Shown here: positions 1 through 45,450 of the stretch, in pieces
How positions within the stretch are numbered: the stretch's first letter is position 1
How the letters are laid out: the number at the start of each line of letters is the position of its first letter
Assembly: GCA_902761535.1 (NCBI GenBank)
Contig: CACWKS010000002.1
Span: forward strand, 142,418-206,417
Direction: 5' to 3'
Length of the DNA stretch: 64,000 bases
DNA from: an uncultured Pseudomonadota bacterium
GTDB lineage: Bacteria; Pseudomonadota; Alphaproteobacteria; RF32; CAG-239
Made by a program: the position numbers and the translations under genes
The notes under the pieces: generated by a model
What the model was told of the DNA's origin: nothing
What the model saw: only the letters and a program-made list of their open reading frames with translations
Databases searched by the model: none

Positions 1-636
1 GGCAAACTCATCCGGTAATTGATTTATACTTGGTTTAAGCCAGTAATCCCTGTACAATATTGCTTGAGCTCTTTGTGGCGTTATGTTTATAATATCTTCC
101 TTGGGATAATATTTTGAGCTAATACCATAGTTGGTAATTCCGCCTCTATCGTTAGGATGATTAGCAAACCCTCCTTCGTTAAATTTGGTGCGTTGCATAG
201 CATGCTGAAAACGAGTATCACCAAGCATATTATCAATAAACTCTTTAGAGAAATCATTGCCATAAAGAGAATAATCAATCATTTTGCTTGTTTGATTCAC
301 ATCATTTACTATATTTGGCAAAGTATTTTGTGCATACTGCATAGGTTGATTTAAGGTATTTTGCATATTCTCAATATTAGCTTCAATATTGAAGTTGCCA
401 AAACCGTAGTTGTTGGCAGAATTACCCCAAAAGTTTGTGCTATATTGCGGATAGTTTGAAGTTATGCCTTGAGCATTATAATTTTGCATCAGTTGTTTTT
501 CGCGTTGTTGCCGAGTGGCTTGATAGGCTAACTCATCACGCAACGAAAATCCGTTATGATTCACCCCATAACTGTCAATACCGTTATCACCGTTTTGATA
601 GCCTAACGGTGAGATATAATTTCCATACATTTGCAT
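1..636 (-). CDS. Partial gene running off the window edge. Q/N-rich N-terminus followed by a glycoside hydrolase family 108-like (predicted lysozyme / peptidoglycan hydrolase) domain.
   Basis: I translated the minus strand by hand from the ATG at 636 (preceded by aaaggaaaaataaa). The frame stays open to position 1. It reads ...FNEGGFANHPNDRGGITNYGISSKYYPKEDIINITPQRAQAILYRDYWLKP..., which matches the GH108 EGGY.NDP.D.GG.T.YGI signature. The ORF track omits it because it is truncated at the window edge. Confidence 0.6.
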   Translation of the reverse strand, partial: MQMYGNYISPLGYQNGDNGIDSYGVNHNGFSLRDELAYQATRQQREKQLMQNYNAQGITSNYPQYSTNFWGNSANNYGFGNFNIEANIENMQNTLNQPMQYAQNTLPNIVNDVNQTSKMIDYSLYGNDFSKEFIDNMLGDTRFQHAMQRTKFNEGGFANHPNDRGGITNYGISSKYYPKEDIINITPQRAQAILYRDYWLKPSINQLPDEFA

Positions 637-933
637 TTTATTTTTCCTTTCAGTTTACTTATAAAAAAAGAGCCTTGTTTTCAACAAAGCTCTTGGTTGA
701 TAAAAAAATATGGCGATAAAGCAGGCACAAAAAAATCCCGCCATTTTCATGACAGGACTTTTACCCACTCATCCACCATACCTATTTTTCTAACACCTAC
801 CGTCGCTAATGTCAATATACCATCTTGAAATATCCCCAAAAAGTTGAATATATATAACAATTAATTATTTTTTTGTTGTGTAATTAAATTTCATATTGTT
901 AAAGCATTATCTCGTTTTAGTTGTGCTATTTTT

Positions 934-3054
934 TTAAGCCTGATAATTTTGCACACTCTCATCTTTATCAAATAAATAGAGCAGGGTACGCAGAGCCTGT
1001 CCGCGTTTGCTTTGCAATAATTTATCTTTATTGATAATCAGTTGAGTATCTTTATGTGCCACCAATAACAAATGACGATGATAATCCATATTCGCCAAAT
1101 GAAAATCTTCCAACCCGCTTTGGCGTGTTCCCAATATCTCACCGCCGCCGCGTAACTCCAAATCTTTTTCGGCAATCACAAATCCGTCTTCGGTTTGTTT
1201 CATTATATTCAATCTTTCGTAAGCCGTCTCACTCAAATGTCCGCCATACATCAACAAACAAATCGCTTGTTGATTACCTCTTTTCACTCTTCCGCGCAAT
1301 TGGTGCAATTGTGCCAAACCGAAACGTTCGGCATGCTCGATTAGCATAAGAGTTGCCTGCGGTACATTAACACCCACTTCAATCACCGTCGTTGCCACCA
1401 ACAAACGAAGCTCGCCATTTTTGAAACGATTCATAACTTCATTTTTTTCCGCTTCTTTCATTTTGCCGTGAACTAAACCTATCTTATCGCCGAATATCTG
1501 CTGTAAATCGGCAAATCGTGCCTCTGCCGCGGCCAGATCGGATTTTTCGCTTTCTTCAACCAGCGGACAAACCCAGTATGCCATAATTCCGTCATTAATT
1601 TGTTTTTCCAGTCCGCGTATAACTTCAGATAGTTTAGTCAAAGGTATAACTCTGGTATCAACCGGTTTGCGTCCTTCCGGCAGTTTATCGATAACCGAAC
1701 AATCCATATCTCCGTAAGCACTCAAAACCAAAGTTCTGGGAATTGGCGTTGCCGTCATTACCAACACATCAACGTTAATTCCTTTTTGTGATAACTTCAG
1801 CCGTTGTTGCACCCCGAAACGATGTTGTTCGTCAACAATCGCCAAATTCAAATTGTGATAAATCACCTCATTTTGAAATAAAGCATGAGTGCCGATAATA
1901 ATATCAATCTTACCATCAGCCAAATCATTCAAAATTTGCTTGCGTTCTTTGGCTTTGGTTTTTCCGGTCAGTAAAGCAGTCTTTACTCCGATAGTCTCAG
2001 TCATCGGTGCAATAGTTTCATAATGTTGCTGTGCCAAAATTTCGGTCGGTGCCATCAATGCCGCTTGTCCTTTAACCTCTACGGTATTTAACATTGCCAA
2101 CAGAGCTACAATGGTTTTACCTGAACCCACATCGCCTTGTAACAAGCGCATCATTTTATATTCCGAAGCTTGATCTGTATAAATTTCCTGCAAAACTTTT
2201 TCTTGTGCTTCGGTCAATTTAAATGGCAGTTGTTCAACAATCTTTTGGCGCAGGCGACCATCTCCGGAGATCGATTTTCCTTTTATCTTTTTTCGCTCTT
2301 CACGCACAATTCCCAAAGTCAACTGATTAGCCAACAGTTCATCATAGGCCAGTCTGGCACGTTCTTTGGCAAAAGGTTGCAAATCATTTATGGTATTCGG
2401 ATGATGTGCTTTTAATAATGCGTTCTTAAAATTCGGCCATCCTTTTTCTTTTATAAATTGCTCATCAAGCCACTCCGGTAATTCAGGCACTTTTTTCAAA
2501 GCCTGTACCATAAATTTTTCCAGCATTTTATTGGTGATACCGGCAGTCAAAGGATACACCGGTTCGATTTCCGGTATTTCTGCGGCATCACTTTCGTTCA
2601 GTATAAAATCAGGATGCGCCATTTGCAGCTGGTTGTTAAATCTTTCCAATTTGCCGCTAATGATTTTGCTTGCACCGACCGGCAGGTTCTTGAGAATAGA
2701 ATCAGCATACACCTTAAAAAATATCAAAGTCAGTTGTTCGGTATCGTCTTCCACAATCACTCGATAAGGTTGTTGCCGTTTCTTTGGCGGGATATGTTCC
2801 ACAACTTTAACTTTGACAGTACAAATTTTTCCGGCAACGGCATTTTGCAACTTGGGCCGATAACTGCGGTCGATAATATTAGTCGGCAAATGAAATAACA
2901 AATCGATAATTCGTCTTCCGCCCAACAGATTTTCCATATATTTAAGTGTCTTCGGTCCCATACCTTTCAGCGAAGACAAATCAGCAAACAACGGATATAA
3001 AACTTCCGGACGCATCAAACAACCTTTCATTTTTTTTACAAAATAAACTTGCAA
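934..3054 (-). CDS. recG: ATP-dependent DNA helicase RecG
   Basis: 706-aa ORF with helicase motifs GDVGSGKT and DEQHRFGV and a C-terminal RecG-type region. The true start may be the internal Met at about 3015. Confidence 0.9.
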   Translation of the reverse strand: MQVYFVKKMKGCLMRPEVLYPLFADLSSLKGMGPKTLKYMENLLGGRRIIDLLFHLPTNIIDRSYRPKLQNAVAGKICTVKVKVVEHIPPKKRQQPYRVIVEDDTEQLTLIFFKVYADSILKNLPVGASKIISGKLERFNNQLQMAHPDFILNESDAAEIPEIEPVYPLTAGITNKMLEKFMVQALKKVPELPEWLDEQFIKEKGWPNFKNALLKAHHPNTINDLQPFAKERARLAYDELLANQLTLGIVREERKKIKGKSISGDGRLRQKIVEQLPFKLTEAQEKVLQEIYTDQASEYKMMRLLQGDVGSGKTIVALLAMLNTVEVKGQAALMAPTEILAQQHYETIAPMTETIGVKTALLTGKTKAKERKQILNDLADGKIDIIIGTHALFQNEVIYHNLNLAIVDEQHRFGVQQRLKLSQKGINVDVLVMTATPIPRTLVLSAYGDMDCSVIDKLPEGRKPVDTRVIPLTKLSEVIRGLEKQINDGIMAYWVCPLVEESEKSDLAAAEARFADLQQIFGDKIGLVHGKMKEAEKNEVMNRFKNGELRLLVATTVIEVGVNVPQATLMLIEHAERFGLAQLHQLRGRVKRGNQQAICLLMYGGHLSETAYERLNIMKQTEDGFVIAEKDLELRGGGEILGTRQSGLEDFHLANMDYHRHLLLVAHKDTQLIINKDKLLQSKRGQALRTLLYLFDKDESVQNYQA

Positions 3055-3110
3055 ACTTTTTTCTCATTGTATATAGTTTTTTCGCTCAAGTAAATAATAA
3101 GAAAACAATA

Positions 3111-6100
3111 ATGCAGTATAATATTGATAAATATCTCGGGCGTATTGCCGCTTCACTTCCCCAAGGTGCCGATGTTTGCCTTTTGGGGGAGTTTGCACGT
3201 ACCTGTGATTCTGATATCCTTTATATCGTACCAAGCGGAGTGGAATTAGCAAATGCCGCCGATTTGTTGCAATATATGTATCCTGATATCAGGGTATTGC
3301 GTTTTCCGGCTTGGGATACTACACCTTATGATCGTTCTTCTCCCAATAACGAGTTAATTGCCCAACGTGTGGCAACCTTGTCTGAACTTGCTATTAACCC
3401 GTCTGGCTCATCGTGTCGTGTAATTATCGCTTCGGTGGGAGCGATTATGCAAAAACTGCCGCCCAAAAAAGTTTTTATCAATGCCTTGCGTGAAATTAAA
3501 GTCGGCGATAAATTGGTATTTAATGATTTTATTCACTATGCCGCTATGAATGGTTATACACGGGTGGAACAGGTTTTCGAGGCCGGCGAATATGCCCTGC
3601 GTGGCGATATTATAGATATCTTTCCGGTTGGAACTTCCGAGCCTTTACGTATAGACCTGTTTGATGATGAGGTTGAACGTATTCGCACTTTTGATGTTAT
3701 GACTCAACGCACCACCGGTGAATTGACCTCTTATTTGTTTAAGGTAATGAGTGAAGTTGTGCTTGATGATAATACGATTGCCTCTTTTCGTTCGCAATAT
3801 CGTGAGGCTTTCGGTTCGGGCAGTATTGATGATGAAATTTACAATGCCGTTTCATCCAAAAACAAACATATCGGTATGGAAAACTGGTTACCGTTTTTTT
3901 ATGACAATCAGCTTATTACTTTGTTTGATTATTTACCCGCTGCCCAAATCATTTTATCTGATGAAGTTAATGAAGCGATAATTTCCAAAGAAAACAGTAT
4001 TGCTGATTATTATAAAGCACGTCTTGAGGCTTTGAGTATAAAAGCACCTGATGTTGCGGAAACTTATCGTCCGATTGCTCCGGAATTATTATATCTCCGG
4101 GCCAAACAGCTCAATCAAATATTTTCTCACCGTCGTGCCATAAAATTTACTTCGCATAATCTGCCGTCTTCAGGCGATGTTATTGATTGCGAAGCAACAC
4201 CGATGCGTTCTTTTATCGGGGTGCAAAAACAGGAAACCGCCGAACAAACTTATGATGAATTACGTAATTTTTTAAAAGATAATCGTCAATTATCTCGCAT
4301 TATTGCTTGTTATTCTTCCGGCAGTCGTGAAAGAATTTATAATTTATTGAATGAACATAACATAGCTGATTTAATATTGTGCGACACTTGGGCGGAATCT
4401 CTTGCCAATGCCGATAATCATATTGTTTTAACCGTAATGCCTTTACCTCATGGTTTTAAGGGATTTGGACTTTGCTTGCTTGCCGAGGCTGATATTTTGG
4501 GTGAGAAACTCACTCGCCGCAAACCTAAAAAAGCTTCATCTCAAGATTTTATTGCCGATATCTCATCTTTATCTCCCGGCGAATTGGTAGTTCATATCGA
4601 TCACGGTATCGGACGTTTCTTAGGTCTTGAAACTCTTTATGTTGATGGTGCTCCGCATGATTGCCTGAAGATTGAATATGCCGGCAATTCCAAACTGTTT
4701 GTGCCGGTAGAAAATTTAGATGTGTTGTCACGCTATGGCAGTGATGATGCTCTCGCTGAATTGGATACTTTAGGCGGTACTGCTTGGGCGATTAAAAAAG
4801 CTCGGGTTAAAAACAAAATTCGCGATATTGCCGAAAAACTTATCAAAATTGCCGCCGAACGTAAACTTAAAAAAGCCGAAGTTTTTATCCCTCCGGTCGG
4901 AATATATGATGATTTTTGCGCCCGTTTTCCTTATAACGAAACCGATGATCAACAAAATGCCATTGATGATGTAATCGGCGATTTATCAGCCGGAATACCT
5001 ATGGACAGATTAGTCTGCGGTGATGTCGGTTTCGGTAAAACCGAAGTTGCTATGCGTGCCGCTTTTACGGTTGCCGCATCAGGAGCTCAGGTTGCCATAA
5101 TTGTTCCCACTACTTTATTGGCTCGCCAGCATTATTTAAATTTTCAGCAAAGATTTGCCGGTTTTCCGATTAAAATAAAAATGCTGTCCCGTTTAGTATC
5201 CGCCAAAGAATCAGCCGAAGTTATCCAAGGTCTTAAAGATGGTGCGGTTGAAATTGTTATCGGTACTCACGCCTTGCTTTCGCAAAAAATTGAGTTTTGC
5301 AATCTCGGACTTTTGATAATTGATGAGGAGCAACATTTCGGTGTTGCCCATAAAGAAAAAATCAAACAGCTTAAAACCGGCGTTCATGTACTCACCTTAA
5401 CTGCCACCCCCATACCGCGTACTTTGCAGTTATCTTTAACCGGAGTTAAAAATTTGAGCATTATTGCTACTCCTCCGGTTGATCGCCTGGCGGCACGTTC
5501 TTTTGTGATGCCTTTTGATAAGGTAATGATAAAGGAAGCAATTTTGCGTGAAAAAAATCGTGGCGGACAAACCTTTTTCGTCTGTCCGAAAATTGCCGAT
5601 ATTCCTCAAGCCGAAGAAATTTTGCACGAAATTGTACCTCAAGCCAAAGTATTGATTGCTCACGGGCAAATACCGGTCAAACAGCTTGAAGATGTTATGA
5701 ATGATTTTGCCGCAGGGCAGGGTGATATATTGCTTTCCACCACCATTATCGAATCCGGTATTGATATGCCGCAGGTCAATACAATGATAATATATCGTTC
5801 CGATATGTTCGGGCTTGCTCAGCTTTATCAACTTAAAGGTCGTATCGGACGCAGCAAGGTCAGAGGTTATGCTTATTTCACCACTCAACCGAAACATAAG
5901 CTTTCTGAAATTGCCACCAAGCGATTAACCGTATTACAGTCATTAGATACTTTAGGTGCGGGATTTTCTTTGGCCAGTTATGATATGGATATTCGCGGTT
6001 CCGGCAATGTTTTGGGTGAGGAGCAGTCCGGTCATATCAAAGATGTCGGTATTTCCTTGTATCAACATTTGTTGGAAGAAGAGATTACTCGTTTACGTGC

Positions 6101-6584
6101 ATCTTCATCCGGCGAGCAGTCTAAACAAATTCGCGAATGGGCACCGCAAATTGCTATCGGTATCCCGATTATGATTCCTGATGACTATGTACCTGATTTA
6201 GGCTTGCGTTTGGGGTTATATAAGCGTATCGGTGATCTTGAAACCGCGGAAGATGTTGCCGACATGCGCGAGGAATTGATCGATCGTTTTGGTAATCTGC
6301 CTAAAGAAGTTGCCAATCTGTTAGCTGTGGTCGAGATAAAAATTTTGTGTTTAGCTTGCGGCATTGATCGAGTAAATGCCGGTGCCAAAGGTGCTTTAAT
6401 CGGCTTTCGTAACAATGTTTTTGCCGAGCCGGAAAAATTGATGAATATGGCTCTATCCTCTTTTGGCGTGCTCAAAGTTCGCCCTGATCAGCGTCTGTTT
6501 ATTGAAAAAGATTTATCATCTTACGAGATGCGAGTTCAAACCATCAAGCAAACTATCGCCCAAATAGCTGCATTACTCAAATAA
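3111..6584 (+). CDS. mfd: Transcription-repair coupling factor Mfd
   Basis: The ORF track opens this frame at 2946, inside recG, but the N-terminus is likely MQYNIDKYLGRI at 3111. It has UvrB-interaction, RNAP-interaction and superfamily-2 helicase motifs (GDVGFGKTEVA, DEEQHFGV) and a TRCF C-terminal domain. Confidence 0.9.
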   Translation: MQYNIDKYLGRIAASLPQGADVCLLGEFARTCDSDILYIVPSGVELANAADLLQYMYPDIRVLRFPAWDTTPYDRSSPNNELIAQRVATLSELAINPSGSSCRVIIASVGAIMQKLPPKKVFINALREIKVGDKLVFNDFIHYAAMNGYTRVEQVFEAGEYALRGDIIDIFPVGTSEPLRIDLFDDEVERIRTFDVMTQRTTGELTSYLFKVMSEVVLDDNTIASFRSQYREAFGSGSIDDEIYNAVSSKNKHIGMENWLPFFYDNQLITLFDYLPAAQIILSDEVNEAIISKENSIADYYKARLEALSIKAPDVAETYRPIAPELLYLRAKQLNQIFSHRRAIKFTSHNLPSSGDVIDCEATPMRSFIGVQKQETAEQTYDELRNFLKDNRQLSRIIACYSSGSRERIYNLLNEHNIADLILCDTWAESLANADNHIVLTVMPLPHGFKGFGLCLLAEADILGEKLTRRKPKKASSQDFIADISSLSPGELVVHIDHGIGRFLGLETLYVDGAPHDCLKIEYAGNSKLFVPVENLDVLSRYGSDDALAELDTLGGTAWAIKKARVKNKIRDIAEKLIKIAAERKLKKAEVFIPPVGIYDDFCARFPYNETDDQQNAIDDVIGDLSAGIPMDRLVCGDVGFGKTEVAMRAAFTVAASGAQVAIIVPTTLLARQHYLNFQQRFAGFPIKIKMLSRLVSAKESAEVIQGLKDGAVEIVIGTHALLSQKIEFCNLGLLIIDEEQHFGVAHKEKIKQLKTGVHVLTLTATPIPRTLQLSLTGVKNLSIIATPPVDRLAARSFVMPFDKVMIKEAILREKNRGGQTFFVCPKIADIPQAEEILHEIVPQAKVLIAHGQIPVKQLEDVMNDFAAGQGDILLSTTIIESGIDMPQVNTMIIYRSDMFGLAQLYQLKGRIGRSKVRGYAYFTTQPKHKLSEIATKRLTVLQSLDTLGAGFSLASYDMDIRGSGNVLGEEQSGHIKDVGISLYQHLLEEEITRLRASSSGEQSKQIREWAPQIAIGIPIMIPDDYVPDLGLRLGLYKRIGDLETAEDVADMREELIDRFGNLPKEVANLLAVVEIKILCLACGIDRVNAGAKGALIGFRNNVFAEPEKLMNMALSSFGVLKVRPDQRLFIEKDLSSYEMRVQTIKQTIAQIAALLK

Positions 6585-6591
6585 GTATAAA

Positions 6592-6626
6592 AAAACACCG
6601 AGGCTTGATGCTCGGCGTTTTTTTAC
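6592..6626. terminator. Bidirectional rho-independent terminator between mfd (+) and the convergent small gene (-)
   Basis: Hairpin caccgaggc-ttgat-gctcggcg flanked by an A-run upstream and a T-run downstream, so it works on both strands. Confidence 0.6.
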
Positions 6627-6978
6627 TTTTTGTTTTCAGCTCGGTATTTTTTTACCTTGCAGAAGAATAATTCCAAGGCAACACCATAGTTCTCAAGTAT
6701 TGCTACCTTTTGTTGCCACTTTTTAATTTCTGCTTTGCCGGTAGGCTTTTGCGCATAAAGCTGACGCAACTCGTCAATTTTGTGATCAACAAATCTTGAG
6801 TTGGCATCATTAATATCAACAGCCTCCTGCAATTTATACCGCAACAAAGAACAATTTTCCTGGCGGTTGACATTTTGATCCCCGGCAGCAACTTTCATTG
6901 CCAACTCGGTAACTTTTGCAGAATCAATCTTATCACTGCCGAAAACGTCATAAATCTCTTTTAGTGTTACTGTTTTCA
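6623..6978 (-). CDS. Small hypothetical protein, possibly DUF2853-like
   Basis: The ORF track gives 6623..7048. The probable start is MKTVTLKEIYDVFGSD at 6978. I recognise no motif with confidence. Confidence 0.45.
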
Positions 6979-7065
6979 TTTTTGTAATATTATTTATTAA
7001 TAATTTTTTTAGACAACATTTGATATAATACAAAAAGTTAAAAATCAATCAATTTTGTGTAAAAT

Positions 7066-27450: not shown

Positions 27451-30400
27451 ATGAATAAAAATTTTTGGTTACTGTTGTTTTTTATTTTATGTTGCCCGGT
27501 ATTGACTTATGCCGGCATAAAAACGATTAATGATACGCCTTATGCCAGTGGCAATTCTGCGACGGTTTCATCCGGATCTTCCGATGATAATTCGTTATCT
27601 GCAAATTCCCCCAAGAGCCAAAATCTTCTTAATTCTTCCAATAACAGCAATGATTCGCAGTCTGATTCCCAAGCTGATGGGGACAGTGACGGAGATGGCG
27701 ATGGAAACGAAACTTATCCTGCCTGTTATTTTTCCGGTTGTGAAAATTATTCTTCTTGCCAATATTATGATATAAATAGTTTGTCTGTGGCAAGCAATTA
27801 TTGCAGTTGTGCCGCCAACAATACGAATATTGCCTTATGTGATTCGCAATTACATTATCACAGCACGGTAAATTACAGCGGCTATGCACGTGGTTTAGGG
27901 GTGAGTGCCGACAGTTCACTGACTTTAGTTTCTGGACAAAACAATTATTATTACCTTTCGAATGTAGATTATTTTTGTCCGGTTAAGTTAAATCTTGCAA
28001 CTTTGGGATATACTCTCAATCCTCTTTCCCAAACTTATTATACTGCAGCCCGTAGTCTGGATTGTGATTATGATTCATCAACCGGAGTAAATTTATTTAG
28101 TTACACAGGTATTAACTGCATTCGCCCCGGTTATGGCATCCGAGATGAACAAATAGTCAATCTTTGTATTTATGGGTGTGAAAACAATCCAAACCCTTAT
28201 GATGATATGTTAAATTATGAGAATCGCCCCAAAGGATTGCAGTTTTGTGACGCATTACGCAATCAACGAGATACATCATCTGCACGTAGTTTTTATTCAA
28301 TGGATAGTTATGATGATTTGCCCGCTGCCGCCTCAACCAAATATTATATGTATCGTCCCAATGTAGCCGCGGCTCCTGATGATTTTGATTATCAACTTGC
28401 TGAATGTGCTATCCGGTGCGGGGTGTCCGGAAATGCTGATATAACTCCTATTTGCCAAGGGTGGTATTATTTGCAAAATTGCAGTTCTTTCACTGCAGCG
28501 GAAGAAGCGGCCGGTTATTATATTTCTCCGCTATACAATTCCTATGCTGAAGCTGTTGCCGCGGCTTCACAAATTTCCTCATTTGACATTTGTTACAATT
28601 TTGATTACATATATCGCAAATCAACCTTTATTCGTTGCGGAATCAAACATAGTGCCGACGCAACCAACGGTGTTTATTCTGAAACCGAATGTCGTACCAA
28701 CAACGGCGTTTGTTCTGATACAGAAGGCGACAATTATACTTGCGGTGGCGAAACCTATTGCAAACGCTGTGTTTGTCAAAGCGGATTGTATACATTAGCC
28801 GAATGGTGTGCCGCCAATAATATCACCGAAGATTGCGATACCGAACATTATAAGGGGCAGGGGAACGGATGTAACTATGACGACACCAGCAGCGACTTGA
28901 GCGGTGTTAAATATGCCTCTTGGATATTAGATCCTGATAATCCCGATAATGTTTGTCAGCCGGAAGGGCAATATGTGGCATTAGAGGACATTTCCGCAGC
29001 GACTGTTGACGAGTTACACAACACTTATGGTCCTTCTGCCCAAATAAGCAAATGTATATCCGACAACACTATGAAATGGCAGATTACCTGCAGCAGCGAC
29101 TATGCATATATTTGCGGCATTGTTGATACTCCGAGCAATTGGTGCACCCATGGACATGATTCTTCCACCACCATGCGCAGTGAGGCGGCTTCTTCATCTC
29201 CTCACAAATATTGCACCAGCGGAACGCTCAGCGGCATTTGCGGAGAATCGATTATAATCTCAAACGGCTCGGGAAGCAGTTTAATCCCTGCCTCTTATGA
29301 TTTGAGAATTTACGAAACGGAATCGCCAGAGCAGTGTTATAACAGGTATGGACGTGCGGCCTCGGTTCAGCCCTGTATTTCTATTGATAATTACGGCTCC
29401 AAATACAATTGCTACTATGATTTGCGAGAATACATTTATTCCACAACCAATGATAACGGAGCGGTAGTCTGTCCGGTTCGCCATGATCTTACCGGAAATT
29501 ATATAGTTCTCAATGGGCAGAAGCGATGGGCGGAATGCAATTGTATGGGGCTTTACGATTACACCATTTACACATGTTCCGGCAACGCAACCGTTATGGG
29601 CAAGGCTTGCACTCAGAATTTATCAAATGTAAATTCATCAAATACGTTAATCAACAAATGGAAAGATAAAGTTCCATATGATCAGGTCAACAATCGCATT
29701 TTGGTAAATTCGGTTGACTTATATCCGTATTGCCAATGCGATGAACGCTTCAAATACACTTGTGATGATAATGAAAGAACGTCACCGCTACCTGACAGTG
29801 CTTATTGTCAAGTTGATGGACGCTATTATTATGAATCTTGTCAGTGTACCAAAGATAGCTTGCCGGATCATTGGTCGGATAATTATTTCAATTGCACTTC
29901 CGGCGCACAACCGACCGGTATCTGGAAAGAAGACGGATGCGGCGGCAAGATGTACCAGTGTTCCGATACCATAGTATGCACGTCCGAATATACTCAAACT
30001 TGCAACGGCACCGGACAAATTGGTGTCAGCGGTTATGGTTGCCAAGATGACGAGGGTGCGTATGTTAAATGGAAAAAGTGTCAGTGCGATACTGCCGGCG
30101 GATGGCATACTTGTTTAGAGGATAATCAAAGCGGTGTAGGTGATCCCTGCATTTCCGGAAATGTTAATTATTATCAGTCTTGCTCATGTCCGTCAGGTTG
30201 GGCAACTTGCGATGACGAGCATATACCGGATTCTTCGGTGCAATCATGTCAAACTGACGATGGGATAATTGTCTATGCCTCTTGCGGCTGTAATAGTAAT
30301 TACAGCGAGTGTAGCGGCAACGGACAGGTTGGAGACACCTCATCGGGCATGTGTACATTAAGCGGCGGCACTACTGTTTATGAAAATTGCATCTGCAAGA

Positions 30401-33102
30401 GTGAGTATGACAAAACCTGTCAAGCTGATTCCTCCAATCACATCCGCGGTGATGACAGCGACGTATGCACCATATCCGGTTCTTCCGGTGAAACCGAAAA
30501 TTATTACAAGAGTTGCCGGTGTGAAGATGGCTATATTTTGACCTGCAGCGCTTCAGATCATTTGGTACCGAAAGACTCGGCCGATTATTGCCAAACTGCC
30601 TCCGGTGAAACCATGTATTATAACGAGTGCGAATGTGCATCCGGATATGATAAAACTTGTGAAGGTCAAACTCCGGCGGATATTAATGATTATTGTTCGC
30701 TTAACGGTGTAAGTTATTATACGGCTTGCACCGGATGTGATGCAGCCAGCGGTTGGATTATCTGCAGCGGAGCCAATCAAATTGGTGACGGACAGACTTG
30801 CACCTTCGACGAAACCACATATTACCAGTCTTGTATATGTCCTTCCGGTTGGACGGTTTGTGACGAAGACCATCAGCCTGATTTATCGGCACAGTCTTGC
30901 CAAACCAGCAGCGGAACCACCTATTACGAAAGTTGCATTTGCAACAGCAGTTATACCGAGTGCGGCGGCAATGGTCAGGTTGGCGACACCTCATCGGGCA
31001 TGTGTGTTATTGATGATGACACCACGGTTTATGAAAGATGTATCTGCAACAGCGAGTATAATCTGACCTGTCAAGCTGATTCCGGCAATCATATCCACGG
31101 CGATGCCGATGACGTATGCTCCATATCCGGTTCTTCCGGTGAACCCGAAAATTATTACAAAACTTGCCAATGCGACGATGGCTATACTTTGAGTTGCAGT
31201 GCTTCAGAACACTTAATTCCGAAAGATGCGGCAGATTATTGTCAAATTGTTATGGATGGAGCAATCCTCTACAACGAATGTCAGTGTGCTTCCGGCTACA
31301 CTTTGACTTGCAGTGACACGGACCATTTAGCTCCGAAAGACGATAGTGATTATTGCCAAACCGCTTCAGGCGAGACCAAGTATTACAACGAGTGTGAATG
31401 TGCTTCCGGATATGACAAAACCTGTTCGGCTGCTGACGGCTTATCTCCGGTTGATAGCAGTGACTATTGCTCGCTTAACGACGTAAGTTATTACACGGCT
31501 TGTACTTGTGATACTTCCGAGGGGTGGGTTATTTGCGACAATAATCAAATCGGCAATGGACCTGTTTGCACCTCCGGCGGCACCGATTATTATCAGTCTT
31601 GCTCTTGTCCGGAAGGATGGGTTACTTGTAACGGCGACCACCAAAGCGGCAACGAACCGGCTTGTATTTCCGGCGGCACCAGCTATTATCAGTCTTGCTC
31701 TTGTCCGGCGGGGTGGGTTGCCTGCGGAACTAACCAAATCGGAAACGGAACGCCTTGCGTATTGGGCGAAACCGAGTATTACCAGTCTTGCTCTTGTCCT
31801 TCCGACTGGACAATCTGTACCGATAACAAGGTCGGCGATCCGTCGTTAGGTTCTTGCACCATTGGCGGCACCACTGTTTATGAAAATTGTATTTGCCCAT
31901 CTCACTGGATTACTTGCGAAACTAACCAAAACGGGGTAGGAGAGGTTTGCACCTCCGGAGGAATTGATTATTATTCGTCTTGTATATGCCCCATTGATTG
32001 GACGGCATGTTCCGGCAATCACATCATTGGTGATCCGTCATCCGGTGCTTGTGCCATCAACGGCTCCACTGTTTATGAAAGTTGTGCTTGCGATTCCGGC
32101 TATACCGAAAACTGCTTAAATCAAGCTCCGGTTGATGAAAATGATTATTGCTCGCTCAACGGTGTAAGTTATTATACCGCTTGCACCGATTGTGGTGATG
32201 TAGTTAAGAGGTACGATTGCGGAGAGCGCGACGCAGGTCCGATTAACTGTATTCAAAGTTATTGGGATGGAACTATACAGACAACTTACGCTTCTTGCGA
32301 TTGCTCAATACCGGAGATATATGATGGTCGTAGAAACACTGAGGCAATTATCAGAGAGACTCCCCGTGGTGAATTTGCAGCTGATGTCGCTTATCAATAT
32401 CATCCTTCAAATCTTTCTCTATTGGATAATAATTTCGGTATTGGCCGTTGGTATCTTCCTGCTTATGGAGAAATGTATCAAATGGTTAATGTTATAGATA
32501 CCGTTAATTCAGGAATTTCAGCCGTATCCGGCGAAGTGATGTATCCAGATATATCGTATTGGAGCTCATCTGAAGTCGATATGTGGTATAGTATCAAGGT
32601 TTCTAAACAAAATGTAACATATCATTATGTTGATGAACAAGAAAAAAGAATACCATGCATATTTCGCATAGTTACTCTCTTAGAAAACAAACTGCCGGCA
32701 ACTTCTTTATCTAATATTGCCGGTGCCGCCGTCGGCGATGTGGTCTATAGTGACCTGACTTATGACAGCTATACCAATCCTCATTCTGACAAAACTCCGG
32801 TCGGAGTGGTCTATTGGGTTTCCTCTGACAAATCTCGTGTGCGTATAGTTTCTCCTAATCAGCCCAAAATGCTGCCCTGGGGTTGGGGTGGATTTTATAC
32901 TTACGTGAAGCTGGAGGATGTACCCACTGAAGTAGGTGAATGGGAAATGGAAAGTCAAATGTGTTGGGACGATAATCAAAATGAATATGAGTGTTATGAG
33001 GTTGATGGTGGTATAGATATCACAGGTATTAAGAATTTAGGATCGAACATGTTTAACGACGGTATAGGTTGTACTTCTACGGAAATTCTTGACAATCTTT
33101 AG
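27451..33102 (+). CDS. Giant secreted cysteine-rich tandem-repeat protein (1883 aa) with more than 30 EGF-like 4-Cys modules and a distinct C-terminal domain
   Basis: Signal peptide MNKNFWLLLFFILCCPVLTYA. A S/N/D-rich linker including DGDSDGDGDG. About 1100 aa of repeats of the form C-x6-11-YY-x2-C-x-C-x2-G-[WY]-x2-3-C. A Cys-poor C-terminal domain of about 300 aa. Confidence 0.85.
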   Translation: MNKNFWLLLFFILCCPVLTYAGIKTINDTPYASGNSATVSSGSSDDNSLSANSPKSQNLLNSSNNSNDSQSDSQADGDSDGDGDGNETYPACYFSGCENYSSCQYYDINSLSVASNYCSCAANNTNIALCDSQLHYHSTVNYSGYARGLGVSADSSLTLVSGQNNYYYLSNVDYFCPVKLNLATLGYTLNPLSQTYYTAARSLDCDYDSSTGVNLFSYTGINCIRPGYGIRDEQIVNLCIYGCENNPNPYDDMLNYENRPKGLQFCDALRNQRDTSSARSFYSMDSYDDLPAAASTKYYMYRPNVAAAPDDFDYQLAECAIRCGVSGNADITPICQGWYYLQNCSSFTAAEEAAGYYISPLYNSYAEAVAAASQISSFDICYNFDYIYRKSTFIRCGIKHSADATNGVYSETECRTNNGVCSDTEGDNYTCGGETYCKRCVCQSGLYTLAEWCAANNITEDCDTEHYKGQGNGCNYDDTSSDLSGVKYASWILDPDNPDNVCQPEGQYVALEDISAATVDELHNTYGPSAQISKCISDNTMKWQITCSSDYAYICGIVDTPSNWCTHGHDSSTTMRSEAASSSPHKYCTSGTLSGICGESIIISNGSGSSLIPASYDLRIYETESPEQCYNRYGRAASVQPCISIDNYGSKYNCYYDLREYIYSTTNDNGAVVCPVRHDLTGNYIVLNGQKRWAECNCMGLYDYTIYTCSGNATVMGKACTQNLSNVNSSNTLINKWKDKVPYDQVNNRILVNSVDLYPYCQCDERFKYTCDDNERTSPLPDSAYCQVDGRYYYESCQCTKDSLPDHWSDNYFNCTSGAQPTGIWKEDGCGGKMYQCSDTIVCTSEYTQTCNGTGQIGVSGYGCQDDEGAYVKWKKCQCDTAGGWHTCLEDNQSGVGDPCISGNVNYYQSCSCPSGWATCDDEHIPDSSVQSCQTDDGIIVYASCGCNSNYSECSGNGQVGDTSSGMCTLSGGTTVYENCICKSEYDKTCQADSSNHIRGDDSDVCTISGSSGETENYYKSCRCEDGYILTCSASDHLVPKDSADYCQTASGETMYYNECECASGYDKTCEGQTPADINDYCSLNGVSYYTACTGCDAASGWIICSGANQIGDGQTCTFDETTYYQSCICPSGWTVCDEDHQPDLSAQSCQTSSGTTYYESCICNSSYTECGGNGQVGDTSSGMCVIDDDTTVYERCICNSEYNLTCQADSGNHIHGDADDVCSISGSSGEPENYYKTCQCDDGYTLSCSASEHLIPKDAADYCQIVMDGAILYNECQCASGYTLTCSDTDHLAPKDDSDYCQTASGETKYYNECECASGYDKTCSAADGLSPVDSSDYCSLNDVSYYTACTCDTSEGWVICDNNQIGNGPVCTSGGTDYYQSCSCPEGWVTCNGDHQSGNEPACISGGTSYYQSCSCPAGWVACGTNQIGNGTPCVLGETEYYQSCSCPSDWTICTDNKVGDPSLGSCTIGGTTVYENCICPSHWITCETNQNGVGEVCTSGGIDYYSSCICPIDWTACSGNHIIGDPSSGACAINGSTVYESCACDSGYTENCLNQAPVDENDYCSLNGVSYYTACTDCGDVVKRYDCGERDAGPINCIQSYWDGTIQTTYASCDCSIPEIYDGRRNTEAIIRETPRGEFAADVAYQYHPSNLSLLDNNFGIGRWYLPAYGEMYQMVNVIDTVNSGISAVSGEVMYPDISYWSSSEVDMWYSIKVSKQNVTYHYVDEQEKRIPCIFRIVTLLENKLPATSLSNIAGAAVGDVVYSDLTYDSYTNPHSDKTPVGVVYWVSSDKSRVRIVSPNQPKMLPWGWGGFYTYVKLEDVPTEVGEWEMESQMCWDDNQNEYECYEVDGGIDITGIKNLGSNMFNDGIGCTSTEILDNL

Positions 33103-40989: not shown

Positions 40990-42249
40990 ATGGATACATC
41001 TATTTCAACTTTAACTAACGGATTAAGAATTATTACTCAAGAACGACCGAATTTGGAAACGGTATCTTTAGGAGTTTGGGTTAAAACCGGCTCTGCTTGT
41101 GAAAATTCCGGCAATAATGGCATATCTCATTTTCTTGAACATATGTCGTTTAAAGGAACCAATACCCGAACCGCTTTACAAATAACCGAGGAAATTGAAA
41201 ATGTCGGCGGCCAGTCTAATGCCTACACTTCGCGTGAATGTACGGCTTATTATGCCAAAATGATGAAAGAGGATGCCGAGTTAGCCGCAGATGTTTTAAT
41301 CGATTCGGTAAAAAATTCTACTTTTCCGCAAGAAGAATTGGTTAAAGAGCGCGATGTTGTCATTCAGGAGATAAAACAAACCATTGATACTCCCGATGAT
41401 ATAGTTTTTGATTATTTTCAGGAAACCGCTTTCCCCGATCAGGCTTTAGGTCGCTCTATTTTAGGTCCTCAAAAATTAGTCAGAAACTTTAGTCGTGAGG
41501 ATTTGTTCAGTTATATTAATTCCAATTATGCTGCCGAAAACATGGCTGTTTGTGCCGTAGGCAATATCAAACATGATGATTTTGTTAATATGGTGGCAGC
41601 TCGTATGTCTGATTACAAATCCAAAGTGTCTTTTACTCAAGATGAGCAAATTTATCACGGAGGCTTTTGCTCTCATAAGAAGGACATTGAGCAAACTCAT
41701 ATTTTATTAGGTTTTCCCAGCTGTTCTTATAAAGATAAAAGACATTGTGCCATGGTGTTGTTATCAGCTGTCTTGGGTGGAGGAATGTCATCGCGTCTTT
41801 TTCAGGAAATTCGTGAAAAACGCGGTTTGGTTTATTCGGTTTACAGTTTCAATTCCATGTTCAGCGGCAATGGTCTGTTTGGTATCTATGCCGGAACAGA
41901 GGCCAAAGACGTTCCTCAGTTGATGCCGGTAGTGATTGATGAAATCAAAAAAATATGTAATGAACGCATCACCGAAAAAGAATTTATCCGTGCCAAGACT
42001 CAAATTAAGGCCGGTCTGAAAATGGGTTTGGAAAGTTCATCTTCCACTGCCGAAGTATTGGCTCGTCAGCTTTTAATGTATGGGCGCACTTATTCGGTGT
42101 CGGAGTTGGTTGAGAAATATGAAGCCGTAACTTTTGAAGATATCAGAAATGCGGCGCAATCGATATTTTCTGCAACTCCTACTTATACATTATTGGGGGC
42201 GTTTGATAAATATATGGAATATGACGAATTACAAAAGGCATTAGCATAA
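40990..42249 (+). CDS. M16-family zinc peptidase (mitochondrial-processing-peptidase-like)
   Basis: Inverted zinc motif HFLEHMSFKGT and distal E residues; 419 aa. Confidence 0.85.
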   Translation: MDTSISTLTNGLRIITQERPNLETVSLGVWVKTGSACENSGNNGISHFLEHMSFKGTNTRTALQITEEIENVGGQSNAYTSRECTAYYAKMMKEDAELAADVLIDSVKNSTFPQEELVKERDVVIQEIKQTIDTPDDIVFDYFQETAFPDQALGRSILGPQKLVRNFSREDLFSYINSNYAAENMAVCAVGNIKHDDFVNMVAARMSDYKSKVSFTQDEQIYHGGFCSHKKDIEQTHILLGFPSCSYKDKRHCAMVLLSAVLGGGMSSRLFQEIREKRGLVYSVYSFNSMFSGNGLFGIYAGTEAKDVPQLMPVVIDEIKKICNERITEKEFIRAKTQIKAGLKMGLESSSSTAEVLARQLLMYGRTYSVSELVEKYEAVTFEDIRNAAQSIFSATPTYTLLGAFDKYMEYDELQKALA

Positions 42250-42295
42250 ATTTAAATATTACTCGCTATAATAAATTTGAATTATGGAGGAATAG

Positions 42296-43363
42296 ATGTC
42301 GCGTGCGGAAGATATTTTTCAAAAGTTGGTATATTTCGGTGAAGATGCCCTTGATGAGTTTATCATTAATCATCAAAGCGAAGAGCTTTTTCTCGATTTT
42401 AAGCAGGCAGCCTCTGACGGCAAAAATTATAACACACTTCATAAAGATGATCGTCGCAATTTAGCCAAAGCCATATCCGGATTCGGTAATTCCGAAGGCG
42501 GAGTTGTCATTTGGGGAATCGAATGTTCGCGTGATGTTGAAATCGGCGATGTTGCCAAAGCTAAGGTCAAAGTTAAAAATGTTCACCGGTTTTTGAGCTG
42601 GTTGGAAAATGCCATTTCCGGTTGCACAATTCCCAGTCACAACAAGGTTCGCAACCATGTTATCAGCGTTGACGAGGCCGGTGACGGTTATGTTGCTACC
42701 TATATTCCCAAAAGCGATGTTGCCCCCTTAATGACTTCGAGTAATCCTGCGATATATATTCGCTCCGGCTCAAATAATGTTCCGGCACCTTACGCGGTAA
42801 TTGCCGGAATGTTCGGGCGTTATCCTCAACCGAATATTGAAATAAAAGTTGTTGATAAAAAAATTGAAGCCTTATCAAATCAGGATGAAGATATTTTGTA
42901 TCCCAACAGTATTGATAATCCCCCCGAACAATATGTCAAAATTTCATTTTCAATCAACGGCGAAAATCACTCTAATGTTATTGCCCGAGAGATGTTTTTA
43001 TCTGCCAATGTTATTAATGATGGCGGCGAATATAATAAAGTGCGCTTTTCTAATTATAATCAAATGGAAGCAATCCCCGGTATTGAAGGGCAGTTAAACA
43101 TTATCACTCGCCCCGAGTTGAGGTTGCCTCCTCGTGGAACGATTCGTTTCTGCACCTGTGAGATTATTTTATCTCCTTATGCCGAAGATGATTTTCAGCT
43201 TGAGGGAGTTATCGGAGCTAATATGGCCATGCCGCGCGATTTTCGTATTTATATTCCTAAAAATCGTCTAAGGTCTTTTGTTGCTAAAGTTATTCGCGGG
43301 GAAGAAGATTATAATATGATTATGAACGAATTTTTCCAAGACTTTTTCCGTGGAGAGTTTTAA
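42296..43363 (+). CDS. Schlafen-like AlbA_2-domain protein with an unknown C-terminal half
   Basis: EELFLDFKQAAS...AISGFGNSEGGVVIWGIE matches the AlbA_2 (PF04326-type) core. The stop TAA directly abuts the rnhA ATG. Confidence 0.55.
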   Translation: MSRAEDIFQKLVYFGEDALDEFIINHQSEELFLDFKQAASDGKNYNTLHKDDRRNLAKAISGFGNSEGGVVIWGIECSRDVEIGDVAKAKVKVKNVHRFLSWLENAISGCTIPSHNKVRNHVISVDEAGDGYVATYIPKSDVAPLMTSSNPAIYIRSGSNNVPAPYAVIAGMFGRYPQPNIEIKVVDKKIEALSNQDEDILYPNSIDNPPEQYVKISFSINGENHSNVIAREMFLSANVINDGGEYNKVRFSNYNQMEAIPGIEGQLNIITRPELRLPPRGTIRFCTCEIILSPYAEDDFQLEGVIGANMAMPRDFRIYIPKNRLRSFVAKVIRGEEDYNMIMNEFFQDFFRGEF

Positions 43364-43807
43364 ATGCCTGAAGTTGAAATTTTTACCGATGGAGCTTGTT
43401 CGGACAATCCCGGAGCCGGAGGGTGGGGCGCTATTCTGCGTTGTAAAGGTGTCGAAAAAGAATTAAGCGGCGGAGCTGTTAATACCACCAATAATCGCAT
43501 GGAGTTGACCGCGGTTATTGAAGCACTTAAAGCCCTAAAAACATCTTGTAATGTTACCGTTTGTACCGATAGCCGTTATGTTATGGACGGCGTTACCAAA
43601 TGGTTGCCTAATTGGCTGAACAACGGTTGGCGTACAGCCAATAAAAAAACTCCGGTAAAAAATGTCGATTTATGGCAAGAACTCGAGTCGCAGCTTAAAA
43701 AACATAAGATTAGTTGGATTTGGGTTAAAGGACATAACGGTCATGCCGAAAATGAGCGGGTTGACGAGCTGGCGCGAATCCAAGCAAAATCTATGCTTGA
43801 GGACTGA
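43364..43807 (+). CDS. rnhA: Ribonuclease HI
   Basis: [18 protein letters not shown], the catalytic D/E/D residues, HxGxxxNExxD at the C-terminus; 147 aa. Confidence 0.9.
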
Positions 43808-43882
43808 TTGTAAAATTTAGCTTGATTTAGACAAAAAAACATGTTATGTTCAACATGGTTTTAACAGTTATTGTGATGTTAC

Positions 43883-44563
43883 ATGGTTAAACAACGAATA
43901 CAACTCGCATTTTCTGGATATAATAAAAAAAATGATAAACGAATATCCCTCAAAGGGGTGTGTGTCTTTGACACTAAAGAAGAATTTATTGCCCATTTAA
44001 TACGCACCGAACAAATCCAAAAAGATACCCATCCCTCTCCAGACGATGGGTTAATTCATTTAAAAGGTGTATTAAAAATTGATAGTCGTGTCAAATCAGG
44101 ACTTAATTGGAACGATGTTGTGGTTACTTCTGCCGTGGTGGAAGAGGGGAAAGTAAGTCGTTACCAATATCTGCCCTTGACTTATAAAGGTGTTACTACC
44201 GATCTTAAGGCCCCTGATTTACAACAATATATGCAACATAATAATTATGGAGCTGTTTTTAAGGATGACATGTGGCATGTTGAGGTTTTACGTATTCCCG
44301 AATCGGCAACTCACCTCAATTTTTCCAGCGTTAAATCACAGTTAACCTTGTTTTACGGTCAACAAATCAATTTATCTGATTTGCCTTATTCACGGAATTT
44401 ATTCGGGCTAAGTCCTCATCGTCTGGGAGTTGATTGTGTAAATGCCCGCAGAATAGCTCAACAGAAGGGGTGTGGCAAAGAAATATTAAAACTTCTTCCG
44501 CCGTCCAATTCTTGGTTAGGTTTTATCGATTTTGGCAGTATTTTCGGCTCCGGTAGGAGATGA
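43883..44563 (+). CDS. Hypothetical protein
   Basis: 226-aa ORF with no recognised motif. Confidence 0.4.
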   Translation: MVKQRIQLAFSGYNKKNDKRISLKGVCVFDTKEEFIAHLIRTEQIQKDTHPSPDDGLIHLKGVLKIDSRVKSGLNWNDVVVTSAVVEEGKVSRYQYLPLTYKGVTTDLKAPDLQQYMQHNNYGAVFKDDMWHVEVLRIPESATHLNFSSVKSQLTLFYGQQINLSDLPYSRNLFGLSPHRLGVDCVNARRIAQQKGCGKEILKLLPPSNSWLGFIDFGSIFGSGRR

Positions 44564-44662: not shown

Positions 44663-45358
44663 ATGCCTACAAAAAGAAAACAAGAAATTCCCATGTTACG
44701 TAATGGTAAATGGGTCGGTCCGGGCGCAGAAGAGATGAACGGATACAATGAAATACCGGATCCGGTCAAAAGAATTCTGCAATCTGCCGCTACAGCCGCT
44801 ACAAGAAAAGCGGCAAAAGCCCGACAAAAGGCATCACAAAAAGCATCGTCGGAAGACGAAAGAAAGTTCCGGCGTCGTCTGAATGGTTGCGGATGCATTG
44901 GCTGCCAGTTTCCGTCTCAATACGTTTTTCATGAGCGTAGCGCTTTTGAAACTGTTTTGTGGGATGGAAAAATTAATGGCATGGCCACAGTTGTCTGCGA
45001 TTATTTCGGACACCCCAAGACGGCTTACGTGTTTCCCAAAAAATACAAGGGGAGATACGCTCTTGTTCCGTTAAAAAAGAGTGACTATATCTTTACTGCA
45101 AGGTATGTCAATCAACGGAGAAACAAGGCCATTCGGTATTGTGTATATCGAATGGTAGGTGAAAAAGACGGCATGATCATGTTACAATTGATCAATGTAT
45201 GCCTCAACACCGTTTGGGCATACACCGAAGGCCAGCTGGACGGGCGTATCGGAAAAGAGTGGAACGGAAAACTTCCGCCACGTTTCCAAGATGCTTTTGC
45301 AGCGGTTGCCGCTCATCTCAAAGGGTCTAAACTGCCTTTTGCAAAAAAAGAATTGTAA
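44663..45358 (+). CDS. Hypothetical basic protein
   Basis: 231-aa ORF, Lys/Arg-rich in its N-terminal third. GC is elevated relative to the flanks and two strong terminators follow it. Confidence 0.4.
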   Translation: MPTKRKQEIPMLRNGKWVGPGAEEMNGYNEIPDPVKRILQSAATAATRKAAKARQKASQKASSEDERKFRRRLNGCGCIGCQFPSQYVFHERSAFETVLWDGKINGMATVVCDYFGHPKTAYVFPKKYKGRYALVPLKKSDYIFTARYVNQRRNKAIRYCVYRMVGEKDGMIMLQLINVCLNTVWAYTEGQLDGRIGKEWNGKLPPRFQDAFAAVAAHLKGSKLPFAKKEL

Positions 45359-45371
45359 TTAACTCTATAAA

Positions 45372-45450
45372 GCGTCCCACTTAGGTGTGGGACGTTGTTT
45401 TTTTATACAAATAAAGAGCCTTTGAAACTTCAAAGGCTCCTCTTTATCTG
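45372..45450. terminator. Two tandem hairpin terminators between convergent genes
   Basis: The first hairpin is gtcccac-ttaggt-gtgggac followed by a T-run. The second is agagcctttgaa-act-tcaaaggctcct with flanking T/A runs. Confidence 0.6.

Follow-up and report, generated by a model that had tools for sequence, protein, structure and literature searches.

A prokaryotic Schlafen gene with a predicted Ig-like C-terminal domain is held next to rnhA in a lineage of gut Alphaproteobacteria

A 64,000-nucleotide stretch of DNA from an uncultured alphaproteobacterium (the window; positions 142,418 to 206,417 of contig CACWKS010000002.1, assembly GCA_902761535.1) carries a gene for a prokaryotic Schlafen protein, here called slfn, whose stop codon directly abuts the start codon of rnhA, the gene for RNase HI. 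We propose, with moderate confidence, that its product Slfn is a ligand-gated RNase combining a Schlafen nuclease domain with an immunoglobulin (Ig)-like domain, and that the gene was captured once into an rnhA operon and then inherited as a constrained gene. The domain architecture and the likely chemistry are already known; what is new is the lineage-wide locking of such a gene into the rnhA operon, its housekeeping-like evolution and a derived residue signature.

The slfn-rnhA pair and its junction

Two open reading frames (ORFs), slfn followed by rnhA, were read directly at the locus, and together with their junction and Shine-Dalgarno-like sequences they are arranged as follows.

42286..42290, + strand: GGAGG, Shine-Dalgarno-like sequence for slfn, 5 nt 5' of its ATG, within the 46-nt gap after an M16-family peptidase gene
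42296..43363, + strand: slfn, ATG start, 355 aa, prokaryotic Schlafen (AlbA_2) protein with a predicted C-terminal Ig-like domain
43352..43355, + strand: GGAG, Shine-Dalgarno-like sequence for rnhA, within the last slfn codons (G353-E354), 8 nt before the rnhA ATG
43361..43366, + strand: stop-start junction with zero intergenic bases, TAA at 43361-43363 and ATG at 43364-43366
43364..43807, + strand: rnhA, ATG start, 147 aa, canonical RNase HI

The rnhA product matched PF00075 RNase_H with 169 bits (Pfam) and, at equivalog level, the NCBIfam model NF001236 for ribonuclease HI with 228 bits against a cut-off of 160. The junction reads ...ggagagttttaa followed directly by atgcct..., and these coordinates agree with an earlier note on this DNA, which had placed the TAA immediately before the rnhA ATG and had suggested co-transcription and possibly co-translation of the two genes. 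The layout fits that suggestion too, with abutting codons and the Shine-Dalgarno-like GGAG of rnhA lying inside slfn; a GGAG or GGTG could be found in the final slfn codons at many of the orthologous junctions, though not at all of them. Neither a terminator-like site nor a promoter-like site above chance was found by the promoter and terminator scan in the intervals between the M16 gene, slfn and rnhA. This gene layout predicts that slfn and rnhA are transcribed together and that their translation is coupled. Stop and start codons often abut in bacterial operons, and abutting codons alone are unremarkable; the junction is noteworthy because it is conserved beyond chance across species.

A Schlafen nuclease domain with an intact catalytic motif

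The N-terminal AlbA_2 (Schlafen-like) core recognised in the earlier note was confirmed above the Pfam cut-off: residues 29-164 of Slfn matched PF04326 SLFN_AlbA_2 with 34.6 bits (cut-off 25.3) over profile positions 1-117 of 118. The match in PHROGs covered the AlbA_2 part only (residues 54-162). In the AlphaFold2 (AF2) model described below, the whole N-domain comprises residues 1-172 and has an alpha/beta fold that includes an N-terminal helical hairpin. The main elements of the domain are given here.

42380..42787, + strand: Schlafen/AlbA_2 nuclease core, residues 29-164
42380..42403, + strand: predicted catalytic motif E29-x4-D34-x-K36 (SEELFLDFK), assigned from family conservation
42548..42550, + strand: D85, candidate third catalytic acid, invariant in four family alignments

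In a family alignment of 129 members, the invariant residues E29 and K36 are accompanied by D34, which is at least 90% conserved, and the conserved motifs of the N-half include SEELFLDFKRS, AISGFGNSEGGVIVWG, YYIRAGS and GMFGRRPQP. E29, D34 and K36 are also intact in 80/80 members of the clade of close relatives. D85 may correspond roughly to the third acid of the mammalian SLFNs, following the GGxxxWG strand, a placement taken from an alignment with SLFN5 and not from superposition.

Prokaryotic Schlafen nucleases (pSlfn) carry the catalytic motif Ex4(E/D)xK and are characterised by metal-dependent tRNA cleavage, and the nuclease-dead mutant of one of them, RorSlfn5, is E15A/D20A (PMC13056530). 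In the cryo-EM structure of CbCash with tRNA, the catalytic centre is formed by E17/D22/K24 (PMC13462974). The E29/D34/K36 triad of Slfn fits both the published motif (PMC13056530) and the CbCash centre (PMC13462974). Slfn also has the features by which a pSlfn is recognised, namely a full-length Slfn domain with more than 100 aa of PF04326 (PMC13056530), here a 136-residue match, and a structural match to the SLFN nuclease C-lobe. A sequence search of the Slfn protein against PDB chains returned no match among solved structures, and the best PDB match of the family profile was CbCash (9ylu), which was marginal (E = 0.012). Pfam identified neither a P-loop/ATPase domain nor a helix-turn-helix (HTH) or other regulator domain in Slfn. 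The database name 'ATP-binding protein', presumably inherited from a former Pfam name of PF04326, is therefore misleading because the ATPase domain is missing, and the ATPase identity that it suggests was rejected for lack of a P-loop domain.

A predicted Ig-like domain in the C-terminal half

Residues 165-355 had no match in Pfam, NCBIfam or PADLOC, and the earlier note, which had seen no recognised family in the C-terminal half, was correct at the level of sequence. The AF2 model, built from the 129-sequence alignment, reached a mean pLDDT of 86.5 and consists of the N-domain, an all-beta domain and two terminal helices, of which the latter two parts map as follows.

42836..43255, + strand: C-terminal all-beta domain (Ig-like/MG-like sandwich), residues 181-320, high pLDDT in the AF2 model
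43259..43342, + strand: two C-terminal helices, residues 322-349, in the AF2 model

The structural matches of the beta domain were to integrin alpha, complement C3/C5, TEP1, cohesin and adhesin Ig-like domains, and a conserved linker, GMFGR(R/Y)PQP, joins the nuclease domain to the beta-sandwich. Residues 181-320 are accordingly modelled as a putative sensor or ligand-binding module. An ordinary housekeeping enzyme in the C-terminal half, which the earlier note had entertained as an outcome unfavourable to its proposal, was rejected, as the model gives a beta-sandwich of ligand-binding type and no catalytic family was matched. As modelled, Slfn is a prokaryotic Schlafen with an Ig-like C-domain, an architecture published as pSlfn5.

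Conservation of the pair among close relatives

Relatives were identified by searching genome contigs with a profile made from an 18-sequence alignment, and the best 80 of 299 species, all of one lineage, were compared. These species-level genomes encode Slfn orthologues of 71-96% identity and belong to uncultured gut, rumen or caecal Alphaproteobacteria, including Proteobacteria bacterium CAG:495, Candidatus Scatocola (placed in Rhodospirillales by NCBI) and 'uncultured Azospirillum sp.'; in GTDB this group is RF32. One of the 80 loci ends at slfn, and in 79/79 loci that extend beyond it rnhA lies directly 3' of slfn. The gap between the two genes ranges from -4 to +13 nt in the 79 species, with a TAATG or TGATG overlap in 44/79. 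Upstream of the pair lies ispH in 40/80 species, the M16 peptidase gene in 36/80 and another gene in 4/80, and the gene after rnhA is a homologue of hyp226 (the 226-aa product encoded after rnhA in the window) in 34/78, a DsbD-like gene in 28/78 and another gene in 16/78. Rearrangements were thus seen on either side of the pair and none between slfn and rnhA in the species loci compared. The synteny of the AlbA_2 gene with rnhA, which the earlier note had proposed to check in related genomes, holds in every close relative examined. Chance adjacency was rejected, given a junction that persists in 79 species between variable flanks.

The linkage is also present in a relative of 65% identity, in which rnhA overlaps slfn downstream and the flanks differ (an RNase_T-family gene and CorA). 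In this relative the RNase_T-family gene (202 aa) begins 10 nt after rnhA, its length and family suggesting a DnaQ-like exonuclease, an arrangement that would recall the rnhA-dnaQ neighbourhood of E. coli. Among the 80 species, ispH (LytB) stands between the M16 gene and slfn in 40 and is missing from this position in the window and in 35 other species; no ispH homologue was found anywhere in the 64-kb window. One exact 354-aa orthologue (73% identical) is recorded in 4167 collection blocks and on at least 1000 metagenomic contigs, among them genomes of 1.9-2.0 Mb. This points to a very prevalent gut species in which Slfn varies little.

Selection and residue replacement in the rnhA-linked branch

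Ratios of nonsynonymous to synonymous substitution (dN/dS) in the 80 species were 0.066 for the N-half of Slfn, 0.169 for the C-half and 0.139 for RnhA, and the rnhA-linked branch is under strong purifying selection. Mean protein distances amounted to 0.15 for the N-half, 0.41 for the C-half, 0.32 for RnhA and 0.47 for the M16 peptidase. The Slfn distances track those of the M16 peptidase (r = 0.63-0.70), which is the pattern expected for vertical inheritance. No excess co-evolution between Slfn and RnhA was found in a mirror-tree test, the partial r being 0.24 given M16, compared with 0.56 for Slfn-C with M16 given RnhA; the method is weak, and adjacent genes have a recombination history in common.

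Of a set of 109 positions conserved in at least 85% of 120 distant family members, the clade retains 85, with E29, D34, K36 and D85 among them. At the remaining 24/109 the residue has been replaced, and nearly all of the replacements are fixed in the clade; they include R37Q, S38A, H145L, Q146M, Y153I, F161N, H166Y, G226S, P227N, G228V, W257M and P285F. Position 37 is Q in 78/80 clade members, and the R37 of the family is the equivalent of CbCash R25, which lines the catalytic pocket (PMC13462974). The rnhA-linked relative of 65% identity shares 19/20 of the clade replacements that were checked, and a relative of 45% identity, from a contig without rnhA, has family-typical residues at the replaced positions. 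This distribution of residues points to a functional shift that may have taken place at or near the entry into the rnhA operon and been followed by long stasis.

An apparently mobile family outside the rnhA-linked lineage

A whole-library HMMER search yielded 237 cluster representatives of the family at E < 1e-30, to which a profile search added members. Most of these representatives are 340-360 aa long, and many align nearly full length at 32-45% identity, with distant homologues in Nitrospirota, Thermodesulfovibrionia, a Pacearchaeota metagenome-assembled genome, Pseudomonadales, Psychromonas and Ca. Wunengus. Between subfamilies, identity is 51-58% in the N-half and at most 28% in the C-half. 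No fusion of a Schlafen with an RNase H was present among the family hits, none being long enough or carrying PF00075. At 83 distant loci (three long-contig contexts and 80 environmental loci), an RNase HI gene was found in the flanks of none (0/83), and no neighbour was recurrent save on near-duplicate contigs. Their neighbours include methyltransferases of type I/II/IIG restriction-modification systems, HNH, SieB, an IS66 transposase, DUF4365 and Xre-type HTH proteins, as well as an HEPN protein with a UvrD helicase and a phage antiterminator Q with a YoeB/YefM pair nearby. The wider family behaves like a mobile, stand-alone gene that is often defence-adjacent, and the rnhA linkage is a derived, lineage-specific state.

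When two family members were compared with plasmids by tblastn, matches came only from the Bacillus cereus group and Leptolyngbya and were confined to the N-half or the central part of the query; the phage collection gave no family match. Proteins homologous to the N-half alone (residues 1-183, 32-39% identity; 211 aa, named 'ATP-binding protein') are encoded on the Bacillus mycoides plasmid NZ_CP020745.1 (positions 6001-7018 of the locus taken from it) and on ~60 other plasmids of the Bacillus cereus group. On the Bacillus mycoides plasmid a small ORF overlaps the end of the N-half homologue and follows it, with serine recombinases and a gene for an ETX/MTX2 toxin in the vicinity; the N-half gene and the small ORF may be a split or truncated version of the Slfn architecture. 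In IMG/VR, a family member occurs on a single contig, a 6.9-kb inovirus-like element (632-6698) with a G2P/Phage_CRI replication protein, an RstB-like protein and DUF2523, on which the Schlafen gene is located at the edge and is divergent from the phage module.

Surroundings of the pair in the window

Two genes flank the pair directly.

40990..42249, + strand: M16-family peptidase gene (Pfam), probable first gene of the transcription unit here
43883..44563, + strand: gene for the 226-aa protein hyp226, no family match, after a 75-nt gap following rnhA

The hyp226 protein had no match in Pfam, NCBIfam, PADLOC or PHROGs, and homologues 36-81% identical to it come after rnhA in ~35/78 related species, so that it is a common neighbour of the pair without being a constant one. 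An AT-rich imperfect hairpin followed by a T run was read by eye at ~43838-43862 in the gap between rnhA and the hyp226 gene; the terminator scan had not picked it up. Within ~10 kb of the pair there are genes for CheR, a CheY-like receiver, TrmFO, two squalene/phytoene-synthase-type proteins with an amine-oxidase-like partner, the M16 peptidase, a ferritin-like protein, Rpe, an OmpR-type regulator, Tgt and a LOG-family protein. PADLOC gave only weak, domain-level matches, of the receiver domain to PD-T4-6 and of Tgt to DpdA; no PADLOC model matches Slfn, and PADLOC-DB 2023 predates the pSlfn papers. The GC content around slfn is 0.39-0.42, the same as that of its neighbours, and nothing at the locus indicates a recent insertion or a defence island. 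In the published survey, 69.6% of pSlfn lay within 10 kb of a known defence gene and 30.4%, possibly non-immune, did not (PMC13056530). Proximity to defence genes is therefore statistical and not obligatory for pSlfn, because 30.4% of them occur without it (PMC13056530).

Two further ORFs in the window are without assignment. A 1883-aa ORF (27451-33102, + strand), ~9 kb upstream, matched nothing in PADLOC and, at E <= 1e-5, nothing in Pfam. A 231-aa ORF (44663-45358, + strand) had no family match, giving a sub-threshold NCBIfam hit only; its GC of ~0.46 is above that of its surroundings, its homologues occur only in the closest relatives (two at 98% and 76% identity, two at ~30%), and downstream of it lie two terminator-like hairpins, at 45371-45396 and 45413-45442. 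The ORF has the look of a recent insertion, placed between the genes for hyp226 and the ferritin-like protein.

Comparison with known Schlafen proteins

The closest published counterpart is pSlfn5, an anti-phage class that consists of RorSlfn5 from Raoultella ornithinolytica and its Pantoea and Serratia homologues (Perez Taboada et al., Nat Microbiol 2026, PMC13056530). The class is characterised by activation through a phage tail assembly chaperone and by a phage-defence phenotype, and the C-domain of RorSlfn5 is an Ig-like beta-sandwich resembling integrin ectodomains and complement C5 (PMC13056530). Like pSlfn5, Slfn is a single polypeptide with an N-terminal Schlafen nuclease containing Ex4DxK and a C-terminal beta-sandwich predicted to be Ig-like, and in both cases the nuclease half is conserved across the family while the C-half is far more divergent. 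Unlike in RorSlfn5, the motif of Slfn starts at residue 29 and not at residue 15, because of the extra N-terminal helical hairpin. Slfn further differs from pSlfn5 in having two helices after the sandwich and replacements at ~20 family-conserved positions, and its gene is located in a housekeeping operon, coupled to rnhA, rather than in a defence island and appears to be vertically inherited in every retrieved genome of the lineage.

Cash (CbCash, PDB 9ylu; Nat Commun 2026, PMC13462974) is another protein whose Schlafen nuclease is built around an E-D-K catalytic centre. As a ligand-gated tRNase it uses a Csx15 Rossmann-like cA4-binding domain for a sensor, and it is linked to type III CRISPR (PMC13462974), whereas the putative sensor of Slfn is an Ig-like sandwich with no CRISPR context, and R25 of CbCash corresponds to Q37. 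RorSlfn5 and Cash both form oligomers. Among the mammalian Schlafens (SLFN5/11/12/13/14) and SAMD9, the mammalian proteins are two-lobed, carry linker and helicase domains and are 12-19% identical to Slfn; mammalian Schlafens respond to single-stranded DNA, double-stranded nucleic acid or PDE3A. The bacterial AlbA_2 proteins of the 'RecG-related' or HisKinase-HTH kind (2kyy, 3lmm) have a HATPase-like domain and a winged HTH after AlbA_2, and Slfn has neither.

Origin and role of the rnhA-linked Schlafen

In the reading that we prefer, the nuclease would be inactive until the beta-sandwich binds a protein ligand, and the activated nuclease would, by analogy with RorSlfn5 and Cash, cut tRNA or another structured RNA with the help of a divalent metal. 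The slfn gene would have entered an ispH/M16-rnhA transcription unit once, in an ancestor among the gut Alphaproteobacteria, and would afterwards have been inherited vertically under constraint, its 3' end carrying the ribosome-binding site of rnhA, so that the two proteins would be made from a shared transcript with coupled translation. We regard such coupling as operon architecture left by one event and not as proof of a joint function of the two nucleases. As to the trigger, a phage protein would be the default given the family; on the other hand, the core-like retention, the slow evolution of the sensor and the suite of substitutions point towards a host factor. The data neither bear out nor contradict a mechanistic partnership with RNase HI.

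Several observations weigh against a captured, ligand-gated Schlafen of the pSlfn5 kind. No credible PADLOC defence hit was obtained for the 22 proteins within ~10 kb, and defence genes do not typically have such housekeeping surroundings. The evolution of the Ig-like domain is not faster than that of the neighbouring M16 peptidase, a housekeeping enzyme, which argues against an ongoing arms race. The 24 replaced positions, R37Q among them, imply that the substrate or the regulation may have changed. The likeness to RorSlfn5 is a likeness to its published description, in which E15/D20 sit 14 residues nearer the N-terminus than E29/D34, and by this offset Slfn may belong to another subfamily than RorSlfn5. 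Finally, the 80 genomes were retrieved through slfn itself, so the count of its presence across the lineage is biased.

One alternative is a domesticated, non-immune RNase, which after operon capture took on a cellular role independent of RNase HI, such as tRNA/rRNA processing, RNA quality control or a stress-induced translation brake, and whose Ig-like domain binds a host factor. We regard such a role as possible, although on balance improbable. The position next to rnhA in 79/79 assessable species, the strong purifying selection (dN/dS 0.07 and 0.17 for the N-half and C-half), an N-domain more conserved (0.15) than RnhA (0.32) or the M16 peptidase (0.47), the lineage-fixed replacements at family-conserved sites, 19/20 of those checked being common to the 65% relative, and the lack of defence genes found nearby would all be in keeping with it, as would the 30.4% of pSlfn that are not defence-associated and possibly non-immune (PMC13056530). 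However, family members elsewhere look mobile and often lie beside defence genes, and the bias in the presence count applies here as well. Defence genes that are hard to delete can also look core-like, which could happen here through the rnhA ribosome-binding site inside slfn. Moreover, to our knowledge no prokaryotic Schlafen has a known housekeeping function.

The earlier note had regarded the Schlafen and RNase HI as a fixed partnership that could be a defence or R-loop surveillance pair. In such a functional pair the Ig-like domain could bind RNase HI, RNase HI could restrain the Schlafen in the manner of a toxin-antitoxin or guard system, or the two could act in sequence on RNA:DNA hybrids. 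Defence is plausible for the protein family, but the R-loop pair found no direct support, and we consider a functional pair unlikely. Tight translational coupling is enriched among interacting proteins, and the overlap or gap of at most 13 nt in 79 species, with rearrangements on both sides and never between the genes, the persistence of the pair between entirely different flanks in the 65% relative (RNase_T-family gene, CorA) and the co-occurrence of the substitution suite with rnhA linkage would be expected of partners. Overlapping genes, however, are mechanically hard to separate whatever their function, and since all occurrences may descend from one insertion, the 79 species may amount to approximately one event. 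The partnership is also not general: it is confined to one lineage and the 65% relative, with rnhA at 0/83 distant loci, and a single ancestral insertion is the simplest account of it. Neither a Schlafen-RNase H fusion among the hits nor a particular correlation between the proteins was seen, the Slfn-RnhA partial correlation given M16 being only 0.24 and below that of Slfn-C with M16 given RnhA (0.56), and RnhA is an ordinary RNase HI equivalog. No paper linking rnhA and a Schlafen in a bacterial operon was found among the papers searched, nor was a description of the lineage-wide rnhA lock or of the residue signature.

A combination of these ideas, in which the rnhA-linked Schlafen was domesticated and rewired to RNase HI, with the Ig-like domain binding RNase HI itself or a host factor associated with RNA:DNA hybrids, is in our view quite unlikely. 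It is very improbable that Slfn is a non-catalytic protein whose AlbA_2 domain only binds DNA or RNA and which acts as a regulator or scaffold, a role proposed for certain AlbA_2 proteins and for those mammalian Schlafens that are catalytically dead. The replacement of R37, the equivalent of an Arg lining the active site in CbCash, by Q in 78/80 clade members would fit such a protein. But E29, D34, K36 and D85 are invariant or nearly so in the family and in the clade, which is hard to explain without catalysis; Pfam found no HTH or other regulator domain; and SAMD9 is among the Schlafen-type immune effectors that target tRNA (PMC13056530).

Implications

The 'ATP-binding protein' annotation of these genes is wrong and should read Schlafen-family nuclease. 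That prokaryotic Schlafens act as phage-triggered tRNases was shown only in 2025-2026, and the examples tested so far were all taken from mobile defence contexts. In the pSlfn study, ~30% were noted not to be defence-associated and to have possible other roles, and no example was given (PMC13056530). The rnhA-linked slfn, whose host lineage is an abundant one among gut and rumen Alphaproteobacteria and which is more strongly constrained than its housekeeping neighbours, is a concrete candidate for these conjectured 'non-immune' prokaryotic Schlafens. If it were rewired to RNase HI, the ~20 lineage-fixed substitutions would mark the change of partner, and the pair could work as a guard or surveillance system in which the Schlafen fires when a phage or plasmid inhibits or titrates RNase HI; alternatively, both nucleases could jointly clear R-loop or primer RNAs. 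Should a cellular role or a link to RNase HI prove true, Slfn would be the first domesticated bacterial Schlafen, in parallel with those mammalian Schlafens that have non-immune roles. Were slfn simply a defence gene that had become trapped in the operon, it would show how an immune gene can become core.

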